A DNA stretch of 55,274 nt, taken from contig JAYPJE010000012.1 of NCBI GenBank assembly GCA_038128265.1, forward strand, positions 37,333 through 92,606. Reading direction: 5' to 3'. Below, in pieces: positions 45,538 through 51,309 of the stretch. Numbering within the stretch: the first letter of the stretch is position 1; each line of letters begins with the position of its first letter. Source of the DNA: Gemmatimonadota bacterium. Lineage in GTDB: Bacteria; Latescibacterota; UBA2968; UBA8231. Below the pieces are notes generated by a model. It saw nothing but the letters and a program-made list of their open reading frames with translations, ran no database searches and was not told the origin of the DNA. Position numbers and translations under genes: made by a program.

Positions 45538-46422
45538 TTAGAGCGAGCGGTGGCCGACAACGCCCTTAGGGTTTTCAAAAGCATCGACCCACAGGCGACA
45601 CCACTCGTCGTAGTCGTGCATTTCGCTAGAGGGGTTGCTGCGCGAGCGCACGATAAAATCGGGGTGGCCGGTGCGGCCGGTGTGCTGTCCGGTGGGCTGA
45701 TAGCGCAGGTCGAGCGACCAGCGACACTCGTCTGAGTAATTGGGCGTCGAGCGGTGCGGTGTAAAGCGGCTCATGAGCACGATATCGCCCATTTCGCACT
45801 CGGCGACGATGGGTTCGGTGCCGGGAATTAGCTCGGGATCAATCGTCGTGCCGCCCTCGCGCAGGTGGCGGAGATAACCCGTTTCGACCACGTTGGGAAT
45901 TACTTCCATACAGCCCATCTCTTGCGTTGCGCGGCCGATGGGCAGCCAGCAGGTGACCACGTCTGAGCCTTCCGCCTCCTCCATCATCACGCCAGCGTCC
46001 TGGTGCCAGGGTGCATTGTGAAAAGAGGGACCGGCATGGCCTTCGTACTCCAGCGGCGGTTTGGCGCGCAGGTGCTGTATGGGGTTACAGGTCAGCTCGG
46101 GTCCGAGCAGCGATTCGAGCAGTTCGAGCAGGTTTTCATTGAGCAAAAACGCAAACGTAGCGCGCCCGCGATAGTGCATGATGTCGAGGCCGTTGCCTAT
46201 TTCCCTGCACTGGGCGAAGAGCAGTCCATAGCGCGTTGCAAAGGGTGCGTCCTCGTGCAGATCGGCGATCTTGCCTTCGGAGTGCAGCTGGTGCGCGCGC
46301 GCATCAATCCAGGCGGATAGCTCGTCGATGACGGGCTGCAAGTCGGCCGCGCTCAGGGCGCCGCGGGCGATAATAACGCCGCGGGTGTGGAATTCGTCTC
46401 TTTGCTCTTCGGTCAGTTTCAC
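45538..46422 (-). CDS. Phytanoyl-CoA dioxygenase (PhyH) family
   Basis: Canonical WHQD, distal PHRS..N and RWSLDLRY. GTG start after aggag. Confidence 0.9.
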   Translation of the reverse strand: MKLTEEQRDEFHTRGVIIARGALSAADLQPVIDELSAWIDARAHQLHSEGKIADLHEDAPFATRYGLLFAQCREIGNGLDIMHYRGRATFAFLLNENLLELLESLLGPELTCNPIQHLRAKPPLEYEGHAGPSFHNAPWHQDAGVMMEEAEGSDVVTCWLPIGRATQEMGCMEVIPNVVETGYLRHLREGGTTIDPELIPGTEPIVAECEMGDIVLMSRFTPHRSTPNYSDECRWSLDLRYQPTGQHTGRTGHPDFIVRSRSNPSSEMHDYDEWCRLWVDAFENPKGVVGHRSL

Positions 46423-46505: not shown

Positions 46506-46546
46506 ACAACGAGGGACGGCGCGATTGTCACGCCGTCCCTCGTTGT
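46506..46546 (-). terminator. 16-bp perfect hairpin downstream of the mini-FlhA-like gene
   Basis: acaacgagggacggcg / cgccgtccctcgttgt. The U-tract is weak. Confidence 0.6.
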
Positions 46547-46568
46547 GCATCCAGCTGCAGGCTCTATC

Positions 46569-46868
46569 TCACATGGCATGCTGACGAATATTGTGCGCCA
46601 AGTGCGACGAGAGTTCCGCCACGCCGTGTGCGTAGCCCAGTTCGCCTCCGGCTACCGCCTGTTGGTAAATAAAGATGCGGTAGCCGCGCGGCGGCAGGCT
46701 CGTATTATCGCAGATGCGTATGGGCGGGATTCGATAGCGATCCGTGCGCTCCATATTGCGCCGCATCTGGCGAATGCTGCTAATCAGGTTTCCCTCCTCT
46801 GCGTTTTCGCTTTTTACATACGGTACGAGTTCCAATCCAATTTCGAGTTGTATGGCCTCCATATCCAC
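46569..46868 (-). CDS. Stand-alone FHIPEP/FlhA cytoplasmic-domain-like small protein
   Basis: IQLEIGLELVPYV...NLISSIRQMRR...IPPIRICDNTSLPPRGYRIFI...VAGGEL parallels the FlhA-C LEIG..LIPLV...IRR...P.IRIRDN..L.P..Y.I pattern. RBS aaggag. Confidence 0.75.
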   Translation of the reverse strand: MDMEAIQLEIGLELVPYVKSENAEEGNLISSIRQMRRNMERTDRYRIPPIRICDNTSLPPRGYRIFIYQQAVAGGELGYAHGVAELSSHLAHNIRQHAM

Positions 46869-46995
46869 ACCATCTCCTTGCCATAAAAGTCATCGGCCCT
46901 ATGCACGGCGTTGCGCTCTTTCCGATAAATGGCGCAGTGCTGTGCGTCGAAATCGCCAATGGGGAGGCGGGCGATTTCGTTCCCGCCAGGGGGTA

Positions 46996-47012
46996 AGCAA
47001 GCGCAGTGCCAA
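46996..47012 (-). promoter_or_regulatory. Sigma54 -24/-12 promoter
   Basis: Minus strand TTGGCAC-TGCGC-TTGCT with exact GG-N10-GC spacing. AT-rich tract immediately upstream. Confidence 0.75.
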
Positions 47013-47237
47013 ATTGAAAAATTATTTAGAAGGTAAGCTTAAGTGTATGTTGGAGAGCGTATTGCAAGGCATACAATTCACTGCCTATTGCACGGCATGG
47101 TCCGCGGCTGTGGGTAGAAAATGCGCGCGTGGCGCAGGGCGTAGAGAAAAAGGTGCAACCGCTGCCGCGCGACGGGCACGGCGGCGATTGCCGCTGCGAG
47201 GGGGGCCGGTTTTACAGCGCGCCGGCAGGAGTGTCAC

Positions 47238-48161
47238 CTACAAATCGATGGCGTGTTGGGCGATATAGGCGTCGATATCGGCGCGGCTCATGGAGCCGGT
47301 AAAGGTGCCGCCCGGTGGCATGTAATAAAAGTATTCGGCGTAGTTCAAACCGTAGGGTTGGCCCATGCGCTCGTACTCGTTGAGGCCGAAGAGACGGATA
47401 TACTGGCGGTCAGCCGTCTCGTCATCGTCGCCCAATTCCGGAAGCTGTTTGCCCTCTGCGGCCAGTCGCTCCTTGAGGCGGCGGCCGTGTGAGCCGGCCG
47501 GTCCCTGCGATTTATTGGCGCTCATCGAAGCAATTTTCTCTTCTAAGTACGGCTCAATATCGACGGCCGTGTTATACGGCTGACCCGGTCTCATCGTCCA
47601 ATAATAGATGTCTTTGACCCCGTATGGCTGCAGTCCGCAGGCAATGTGTTCAGGGTAGTCCTTGCTCATACCGGCCATCCAGCGCGCCGCTTCGACGGCC
47701 TGCCCGGTTATGTAGTGGTCGGGGTTTTCCTCCCAGTGTCCCCAGGGACTGAAAGTGGTAATGGTGTCGATTTTCAGTGCGCGAATAAGGTAGACTAAGC
47801 GCGCGCGCAGTTCGATGGGAGAGGCTTCGTCGAGAAAGTGGTTGCGGTAGCTCAGGTGAATGACCTGCTTAAAGCCGAGCTCTTTGGCCAGCACGTCGAT
47901 TTCTTCCTCGTTGCGGCGAATGGTGTCGCCAATGCTGGGCGTGGGGCCGCACTTCTCATCGTTGGTGGTCTGGATCAAGTAGGCAGTATAGCCTTCGTCG
48001 ACGAGCTTGGCGACGAGTCCGGCGCAGAAAAAGGGAATATCGTCGGCGTGCGCCTGCACGGCGGCCAGCACTTTGCCGGCGTGCGGTTTGCCCTGCTGCT
48101 TTTTTTCTACGGTGACATCGCCAATGGCTTCATACCATGGTGTGCGCGGGTCGGATGACAT
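47238..48161 (-). CDS. PIG-L family deacetylase
   Basis: QAHADD and NPDH motifs. Start MSSDPR. Confidence 0.88.
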   Translation of the reverse strand: MSSDPRTPWYEAIGDVTVEKKQQGKPHAGKVLAAVQAHADDIPFFCAGLVAKLVDEGYTAYLIQTTNDEKCGPTPSIGDTIRRNEEEIDVLAKELGFKQVIHLSYRNHFLDEASPIELRARLVYLIRALKIDTITTFSPWGHWEENPDHYITGQAVEAARWMAGMSKDYPEHIACGLQPYGVKDIYYWTMRPGQPYNTAVDIEPYLEEKIASMSANKSQGPAGSHGRRLKERLAAEGKQLPELGDDDETADRQYIRLFGLNEYERMGQPYGLNYAEYFYYMPPGGTFTGSMSRADIDAYIAQHAIDL

Positions 48162-48312
48162 GAGGGAAGGCTCCTTTGTAGAGGATGGCGGCAACCGAGT
48201 GCTAAGTCTGCTCTGCGCACGAAGCGATGTCAAGCGCAACGGGAGCGGCTATTTGATCAGCGGACAAAGTCGGATATACTTGAAGGCCAACGACAAGCGA
48301 TAGGAGCTCGCC

Positions 48313-50517: not shown

Positions 50518-51105
50518 CTAAGGTTTAACTTCGAGAGAGACCGGGACAAAGAGCATGCTGTATGCAATCTGTACCTGTGGACTGGTCTTTAACATGCCCA
50601 TCATGGCTGTCGGCGGTTTGACTCCGTATTCCGTCATGTCTATTTCGACGGTTCCCGATACATTTAAATCACCGTTGGCGAGTATTCGATACGTGCCAGT
50701 GACGTCGATATCGTTCGACACGCCGGCGAGAGAAAGTTGCCCTGAAACGGCGATGGTGTCGCCGTAAACGCGTGCGGTGCGTTCGCCAGCGTGGAAGCGA
50801 ATCTGCGGGTATGCTTCCGCGTTTAGTGCGTCGCGCGTTTTGGAGTCCATGATCTTCTTTCCGCTCGATATGGATAGGACATCTGCGATGAAAGTCAGGC
50901 TGTCGGCGCCGACGAGTGCTCCATCTTCAGCATGAAAGCGCGCCGTTACCGCGAAGCTGTCCACGCTGCTTTCCCAGGCGTGAATGGATGAGTTACCCAG
51001 GATGGAGACGCTGCTCTCATCGGTTGCCAACCTGTAGTCCACTTCGGCCATCGCCGAAGACCAGGTCGACAGCAGCGCCACACCAACGATAAACCATCTC
51101 ATCAT
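50518..51105 (-). CDS. YceI family exported lipid/isoprenoid-binding protein
   Basis: Signal peptide, G.SSIH.W, ALNA..YP.I.F, G.L.LAG and MTEYGVKPP. Confidence 0.85.
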   Translation of the reverse strand: MMRWFIVGVALLSTWSSAMAEVDYRLATDESSVSILGNSSIHAWESSVDSFAVTARFHAEDGALVGADSLTFIADVLSISSGKKIMDSKTRDALNAEAYPQIRFHAGERTARVYGDTIAVSGQLSLAGVSNDIDVTGTYRILANGDLNVSGTVEIDMTEYGVKPPTAMMGMLKTSPQVQIAYSMLFVPVSLEVKP

Positions 51106-51137
51106 ACCACCTTCTTTCTCTTCGTTCACGTGCGTGC

Positions 51138-51292: not shown

Positions 51293-51309
51293 TGCAAGGG
51301 GTGTGCCAA
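51293..51309 (-). promoter_or_regulatory. Sigma54 -24/-12 promoter
   Basis: Minus strand TTGGCAC-ACCCC-TTGCA with exact spacing. Very AT-rich tract 51320-51385 upstream. Confidence 0.8.

Follow-up and report, generated by a model that had tools for sequence, protein, structure and literature searches.

Several described systems bear on the gene reported here. Subunits of secretion machines can yield single-domain products, such as the C-terminal product of the injectisome sorting-platform subunit SctQ. In ECF41/42-type one-component sigma factors, C-terminal extensions regulate sigma activity, and in the FlgM/sigma-28 checkpoint an anti-sigma factor, FlgM, is exported. The described protein to be compared most directly is FlhA, whose cytoplasmic ring governs the choice and timing of export by the flagellar apparatus, the contact between the linker and subdomain D1 being central to the switch. 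As delimited in passages of PMC5916509, D1 comprises FlhA residues 362-434 and 484-503, and D2 comprises residues 435-483. The passages of the same paper on the linker describe how its C-terminal part attaches to D1 in the neighbouring subunit, at a basic helix and a hydrophobic spot next to it: linker Glu351, Trp354 and Asp356 bind Arg388, Arg391, Lys392, Lys393, Phe400 and Leu401 of the neighbouring D1, and the contact drives cooperative formation of the nonamer ring and the switch from hook-type to filament-type export. Chaperones are received by a dimple between D1 and D2, which depends on Asp456 and Phe459 of D2, according to parts of PMC5916509 and of a preprint (10.64898/2026.05.29.728899).

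Here we describe a short gene, mini-flhA, in a window of 55,274 nt (the whole stretch of DNA that was analysed). The evidence gives good support to mini-flhA as an accessory gene of the flagellar system, found in two genera of an uncultured marine lineage.

Identity and conservation of the mini-flhA product

The mini-flhA coding sequence was placed at 46569..46862 on the minus strand (97 aa plus stop) from the ORF list, the Pfam FHIPEP match, the starts of homologues, the dN/dS analysis and the structural model. The first-pass annotation had given an ORF of 99 aa. That frame exists, from an alternative GTG start at 46868 (46569..46868, minus strand), but the ATG at 46862, two codons inside the GTG, is the start in nearly all homologues, so the product most likely has 97 aa. 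The Shine-Dalgarno sequence AAGGAG (46874..46879, minus strand) precedes the ATG by 11 nt and the GTG by 5 nt, and was invariant across seven aligned leaders, in keeping with the good ribosome-binding site noticed earlier.

The upstream neighbour, outside the unit, encodes a PIG-L/LmbE-family deacetylase (47238..48239, minus strand; Pfam, with conserved synteny), and the downstream neighbour a PhyH-family dioxygenase (45538..46422, minus strand; Pfam), whose conserved start lies about 146 nt past the mini-flhA stop. A Pfam scan of the neighbours gave PIG-L, PhyH, Ldh_2 and a xylose-isomerase-like TIM barrel and no flagellar gene, as had been noted in the first reading of the sequence. The order PIG-L, mini-flhA, PhyH was kept in all five annotated loci, down to 39% protein identity, and in none of the five was mini-flhA beside flagellar genes.

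The 97-aa protein matched Pfam PF00771 (FHIPEP) with an E-value of 1.9e-10 and 40.4 bits, above the cut-off of 29.1. The match ran from residues 2-83 to profile positions 329-408 only, of 657. NCBIfam profiles scored it at 1e-10 for FlhA and 0.092 for SctV, and by these scores the protein is of the flagellar rather than the injectisome type, although it reached only 40.6 bits against the cut-off of 772 for the FlhA equivalog (TIGR01398). The N-terminal polytopic membrane domain with the FHIPEP loop is absent from the protein, which has no transmembrane part, as previously stated. The complete D1-D4 cytoplasmic domain with its linker is likewise absent; D1 alone is present, with the return helix directly after the point of D2 excision. 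When the family profile was compared with PDB sequences, residues 3-80 aligned to residues 48-123 of FlhA-C from B. subtilis. The helix at the C-terminus aligned weakly to FlhA-C 171-186, the return helix with which D1 resumes past D2. In Salmonella numbering, query residue 3 falls at FlhA residue 362, so that the protein begins at the end of the linker. Set against the D1 and D2 limits in the cited passages of PMC5916509, this alignment indicates that both halves of D1 are covered and D2 is removed.

An AlphaFold model built from 45 diverse alignment rows (pLDDT 87.2, pTM 0.78) had the topology strand, short helix, helix, three strands, helix. In a Foldseek search it matched B. subtilis FlhA-C (3MIX) with an E-value of 6.1e-9, a query TM of 0.85 and an rmsd of 2.4 over 102 columns; there were 37 matches at E <= 0.001, and among the matches listed all 22 were FlhA or SctV cytoplasmic domains. 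The earlier claim that the protein resembles only the first cytoplasmic subdomain of FlhA was thus upheld by both profile and fold. Taken together, it is well supported that mini-flhA encodes a free-standing FlhA D1 (SD1) from which D2 has been excised, and which is devoid of the linker, the membrane domain, D3 and D4.

The 45-row model superseded an earlier one built from 18 close sequences (pLDDT 65.7), for which Foldseek gave no PDB match at E <= 0.001 and the 50 matches listed from a wide VIA-align search were generic alpha/beta folds (best Z 6.9), none of them FlhA. Weak matches to KH domains (Foldseek E >= 0.2; Z 5.3-5.8) came from this poor model only. The better model matched FlhA/SctV only, among the matches listed, and there is no GXXG between the first two helices; a KH domain was rejected.

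Homologues of about 100 aa were collected by a word-indexed search, which accepted 31 of 35 candidates. Those with at least 96% query coverage had 92-100 aa and 61-95% identity, and length was constant across the family (92-116 aa), as were the ends. Nei-Gojobori dN/dS, computed for 24 pairs with dS of 0.05-2 among 12 distinct coding sequences, was 0.04-0.19, with a median of 0.087. By these codon comparisons, purifying selection on mini-flhA was confirmed; with its fixed length, and with a promoter and hairpin that are kept in relatives, the gene is judged not to be a decayed fragment, as the first-pass annotation had argued.

Promoter, leader and hairpins of mini-flhA

An exact match to the sigma-54 motif TGGCAC-N5-TTGCT (-24/-12), TGGCACTGCGCTTGCT, was found at 46996..47011 on the minus strand and is the predicted promoter of mini-flhA. 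The window holds two matches to the motif against 0.10 expected, and two were reached in none of 100 shuffles; the relaxed TGGCAY form has 19 sites in the 4.29-Mb genome assembly. TGGCAY-N5-TTGCT was present upstream of the mini-gene in nine of nine loci from related genomes, conserved amid diverging flanking DNA. In a second set of loci, eight of whose 11 members duplicate loci of the first, the motif was present in 10 of 11, the remaining one (L022) reading TTGCG at -12. The G123 locus had no match to the strict pattern. The genome encodes RpoN (Sigma54_DBD, E 4.8e-65) and 11 strong activators (Sigma54_activat, E <= 1e-65). The sigma-54 promoter proposed on first reading therefore recurs in relatives, and the AT-rich tract reported with it was seen directly upstream of the motif. 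The sigma-28-like -10 sequence also reported there fared less well: GCCGATGA stands at 46890-46897, but its place is taken by GGGCTGAAGAC or GGGCCGACGAC in relatives, so it is not conserved.

Two conserved boxes, GCACCTTTTTCTCTAC and GCGCATTTTCTACCC, were found in the nine-locus alignment at 47112..47156 (minus strand), on the upstream side of the promoter at distances of about 110 and 140 nt. These TTTTCT-type boxes at about -110 and -140 are candidate activator-binding sites. A similar box occurs at one to two other sigma-54 promoters of the genome (one at -112), and the boxes were also read as weak terminator tails by a terminator scan. A k-mer search for an activator motif common to the 19 sigma-54 upstream regions gave AT-rich words only, and no motif common to the mini-flhA and flagellar promoters was found.

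The leader is about 125-133 nt long in seven loci and about 45 nt in two divergent ones. Near its 5' end lies a conserved hairpin, CGAAATCGCC...GGCGATTTCG (46948..46979, minus strand), whose loop carries CCUCC. RNAalifold on the seven leaders gave 21 pairs, six of them with changes on both sides.

Right after the stop codon stands a strong, terminator-like hairpin (about 46507..46547, minus strand; -43.5 kcal/mol, z -5.9), matching the downstream hairpin of the first-pass annotation; in the window it has no T-tract and was not scored as a terminator. A comparable hairpin lies just past the stop codon in 10 of 12 distinct loci, and in L008, L009, L022, L023 and L025 it is followed by a clear T-run. 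The two most divergent loci have only 75-100 nt between the mini-gene and PhyH, with no strong hairpin there. From these predicted signals, it is well supported that mini-flhA is a monocistronic gene driven by sigma-54.

Flagellar co-occurrence and relatives fused to transcription factors

A separate full-length flhA (at least 696 aa) was found elsewhere in the genome, beside flhB, in a fliOPQR-flhBA cluster: fliO, fliP, fliQ, fliR (the last without a Pfam match), flhB and flhA share one strand, with a sigma-54 site ahead of the run. The genes directly after other sigma-54 sites encode flagellin, an FlgF/G-type rod protein, CheA, a protoglobin-MCP and a group-3 sigma factor, and further sites stand ahead of genes for PspA, an ammonium transporter, Hsp20, Usp and YceI.

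The stand-alone mini-gene was found in 12 of 168 genomes of the phylum, namely all eight of the window's genus and four of the 31 of genus g14. FlhA appeared in the same search in 11 of the 12 carriers, and the twelfth has FliP. Within g14, FliP was found in exactly the four genomes that carry the mini-gene, and the PhyH orthologue in 28 of 31. In 24 g14 genomes without FliP, the orthologous PIG-L/PhyH site held neither the mini-gene nor the motif, and blastn found no remnant there. On the PhyH tree (in which one row, G150, was mis-extracted) all four carriers of g14 group in a single clade (SH-aLRT 93), so the co-occurrence within g14 amounts to about one evolutionary event. The mini-gene was absent from flagellated genera of the same family (e.g. 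g4, g6, g7, g9 and g13), indicating that it is dispensable for flagella. As read from the genomes, co-occurrence and the common sigma-54 promoter type support a tie between mini-flhA and the flagellum.

A profile search against 1.84 billion representatives returned 1081 matches at E <= 1e-3, and the best matches outside the family extend over the entire module, post-D2 helix included. They fall into three kinds. In the first, the module forms the C-terminus of ECF sigma factors of 292-314 aa; Pfam found Sigma70_r2 and/or Sigma70_r4_2 together with FHIPEP in 13 proteins of this size and in two shorter ones, P0040 among the fusions having both sigma domains. The second is a single protein with HTH_17 and FHIPEP (P0096), and the third comprises other stand-alone proteins of 99-119 aa. 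An Atlas cluster of 50 members combines HTH_3 with FHIPEP. The D2 excision boundary is common to this wider family, fusions included, and at least 90% of rows, again with the fusions, have Met at module position 1. The window's own phylum contains two of the fusions (G162 and G078). In G162, which is 92% complete, neither FlhA nor FliP was found, indicating that the module can work without an export gate. The window's genome holds no ECF-FHIPEP fusion, and nothing in it is closely orthologous to the sigma part found in G162 (best match 28% identity); in the window protein itself Pfam found FHIPEP only and no sigma domain.

In a tree of 80 columns, weakly resolved with 38 of 69 inner branches open, full-length FlhAs gathered behind a branch of support 88, with the window family and most fusions outside it, and the FlhA clade of the host's own family (99) excluded the mini-protein. 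A second-phylum sample of 301 genomes around a Planctomycetota-labelled MAG gave long frames among the matches listed: all 150 of the matches listed (20 more were unlisted) had at least about 460 aa, and most of those listed had about 700 aa, typical of full-length FlhA. A search for the metagenome-contig context of the module-bearing protein P0038 gave no match, and one with P0058 gave ordinary ECF sigma factors only, at about 30% identity, which were left unused. A term search of the main texts of two ECF classification papers (PMC7826278, PMC7671368) found no FHIPEP or FlhA-type extension, and in excerpts of the ECF classification supplement FHIPEP is named only as a neighbouring gene of ECF18s9. 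The literature searched held no description of a stand-alone D1 or of an ECF-FHIPEP fusion; within it, the D1-module family, ECF fusions included, appears undescribed.

Given a conserved gene for D1 only, its own sigma-54 promoter, a distribution among relatives that is restricted to flagellated ones, and cousins fused to ECF sigma factors, mini-flhA probably encodes a small regulator tied to the flagellum.

Possible partners and comparison with known systems

Because D1 in FlhA is the docking site of the linker, the corresponding surface of the mini-protein was compared with that of FlhA. R31, R34, R35 and Y43 of the mini-protein align to R388, R391, K392 and F400 of Salmonella FlhA. Arginine was found at position 31 in 17, at position 34 in 18 and at position 35 in 16 of 18 family members, and 16 of 18 have F or Y at position 43. 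All 31 FlhAs of the two phylum samples have a basic residue at the K392-equivalent position, against K or R in three of 11 among the residues listed for 14 fused modules. The FlhA of the window's genome carries V in place of R where Salmonella has R388, so the basic patch is only partly common to the mini-protein and its cognate FlhA; the linker of that FlhA holds a conserved acidic/aromatic stretch, PEDYL. A complex prediction for the mini-protein (18-row alignment) with cognate FlhA 320-696 (11-row alignment) scored 0.01 against a mark of 0.32, a value that counts neither for nor against binding.

The known linker-D1 contacts, the retained basic helix and the PEDYL stretch favour a free D1 that would engage the FlhA linker or ring interface in trans and tune the gate, which on present sequence evidence we hold to be plausible at somewhat less than an even chance. 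The mini-protein would offer its free D1 surface to the linker or to the ring interface in the manner of a microprotein, and a spare D1 of this kind could tune gate assembly or the timing of the substrate switch. Such tuning would take place when sigma-54 and its activator are on. The mini-protein can form neither the chaperone dimple nor the ring contacts of D3. Several observations were counted against engagement of the gate: other flagellated genera do without the gene, its co-occurrence with FliP in g14 amounts to about one event, it lies away from flagellar genes, its nearest relatives outside the family are fused to ECF sigma factors, G162 shows neither FlhA nor FliP, and the cognate FlhA has V at the R388 position.

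The main rival is a partner among the transcription factors. Because ECF sigma factors and an HTH protein with the same module are the closest relatives found beyond the family, the free D1 may act on a sigma factor, an anti-sigma factor or a sigma-54 activator instead of the gate; the D2-less D1 would then be a portable regulatory domain, possibly reporting the state of flagellar assembly. The position of the whole module at the C-terminus of its best non-family matches, the sigma and HTH domains recognised beside it (the HTH_3 cluster included), the two fusions within the phylum, the placement of the window family and most fusions outside the FlhA branch, and G162 all speak for this. However, the window's genome has neither a fusion nor a close orthologue of the sigma part, the basic helix of the stand-alone family is more FlhA-like than that of the fusions, the distribution of the mini-gene follows flagella, and the tree is weakly resolved. 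On balance we regard action on a transcription factor as possible but doubtful.

The mini-protein might instead serve a joint, non-flagellar pathway with the PIG-L deacetylase and the PhyH dioxygenase, its resemblance to FlhA reflecting only ancestry. The conserved order of the three genes, kept even at 39% identity, and the short, hairpin-free gap to PhyH in the two most divergent loci agree with this. The adjacency of PIG-L and PhyH, however, persists in many g14 genomes that have no mini-gene, so the pair is independent of it, and mini-flhA has its own promoter and, in 10 of 12 loci, a hairpin before PhyH; a shared pathway is improbable. Still less credible is a decoy, as suggested in the first-pass annotation, that would titrate chaperone-substrate complexes (FliS-flagellin, FlgN, FliT) from the gate. 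The module does derive from an FlhA region that contributes to the chaperone-binding dimple, and the T490-equivalent region of the return helix is kept as SSH, but D2, the source of Asp456 and Phe459 that the dimple needs in the cited parts of PMC5916509 and 10.64898/2026.05.29.728899, is absent in every family member; this suggestion was rejected as unlikely. Finally, the shortness of the gene and the match to only about 80 of 657 profile positions might be cited for an flhA copy in decay or an ORF arisen by chance. To the extent that sequence can decide, this is refuted by the low dN/dS, the constant length and ends, the conserved promoter, ribosome-binding site and hairpin, the confident compact fold and the same D2 excision boundary throughout the wider family.

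Returning to the free D1 that would act on the linker or ring interface, a natural D1 that is under selection and separately expressed would be a ready-made probe of the linker-D1 interface. If it does tune the gate, it would be the first example, within the literature searched, of a gate regulated by a spare copy of its own subdomain. The ECF and HTH fusions suggest a wider, unstudied class of regulators descended from a domain of a secretion machine. It is conceivable, though rather unlikely, that D2-less D1 modules are portable signalling domains from the export gate, such that in the fused form transcription answers to a linker-type peptide or the gate, the free form acts in trans, and the two together make up a new checkpoint from assembly to transcription. 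Such a checkpoint would be distinct from FlgM/sigma-28 and from FlgSR sensing.

Among known systems, the mini-protein would resemble FlgM of the FlgM/sigma-28 checkpoint as a small flagellum-linked regulator that couples the state of the gate to transcription, should its partner be a transcription factor; it has no sequence or fold relation to FlgM, and there is no sign of its export. Relatives of the module occupy the same regulatory C-terminal place as the extensions of ECF sigma factors, whereas the window protein is without any sigma domain. Like microproteins and SctQ-type products, it is a single interaction domain made as a small protein that could join or compete at the interfaces of its parent; unlike the internal product of SctQ, it comes from an anciently diverged, separate gene with its own sigma-54 promoter and not from an internal start in flhA. 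It differs from FlhA by the absence of the membrane domain, linker, D2, D3 and D4, by the contiguity of the two D1 halves, and by its encoding in a separate gene remote from flagellar loci and outside the FlhA clade of the host lineage. With D1 of FlhA/SctV (PF00771) it has in common the sequence match, the fold and the linker-docking basic helix.

Further sigma-54 sites and a 69-aa ORF

A 69-aa ORF preceded by a sigma-54 motif was identified on the minus strand at L015:8568-8777 (an extracted locus), corresponding to positions 84570-84776 of contig C1 in genome G000. A Pfam search of this ORF gave no match, and the gene that follows it encodes a TPR-SLT lytic transglycosylase. The ORF was present in 28 of the 76 genomes of the family, with few exceptions FlhA-positive ones. 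Its promoter region was compared with that of mini-flhA, the gene for the free-standing FlhA subdomain D1. In both, a GCAAAGTTTTCTC box is conserved at around -112, and the -12 element is directly followed by GGGAAAC. The 69-aa ORF probably encodes a small flagellar protein that has not yet been named.

The window contains a second exact sigma-54 match, TGGCACACCCCTTGCA, at 51293-51308 on the minus strand, 163 nt upstream of a gene for a 203-aa YceI-like protein (50521-51129, minus strand). Elsewhere, a sigma-54 motif with a TTTTCTGCC box at its -95 position precedes the gene for a protein of 1928 aa that carries an FlgD_ig domain at its C-terminus (G000, contig C6, 29543-35326, minus strand).

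In the mini-flhA leader, GGGAAC lies close to the 5′ end, and the RBS reads AAGGAG. Adjoining fliW and csrA genes, flanked by a rod gene and a flagellin gene, were located on contig C2 of G000 (108190-108790). Control of mini-flhA by CsrA is conceivable.

ECF sigma factor fusions

Two loci, L049 (871-1800, plus strand) and L039 (892-1797, plus strand), from two genomes in the phylum of the window, each encode an ECF sigma factor whose C-terminus carries a D2-less FlhA-D1 module. The genes adjoining the two fusions are non-flagellar, and neither FlhA nor FliP was found in G162, the host genome of one of them. In the alignment of module-bearing proteins (A5), the module of the sigma-factor fusions still opens with a Met, where the stand-alone gene has its start codon. 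This fits either of two origins: fusion of a gene that was once separate, or an internal start from which the free module would be released as well.

Carrier labels and the PIG-L/PhyH site

The record labels of mini-flhA-carrying MAGs vary among Gemmatimonadota, Latescibacterota and Planctomycetota; the NCBI labelling of this lineage is inconsistent.

In some non-flagellate genomes of g14, a genus of the same phylum, the intergenic site between the PIG-L deacetylase and PhyH dioxygenase genes holds other small cargo (loci L078, L081, L084 and L088). Examples are a 99-aa ORF shared among such genomes and, in genome G124, an ORF starting MIFDTDVV that was judged by eye to be PIN-like. The site seems to be an insertion hotspot.
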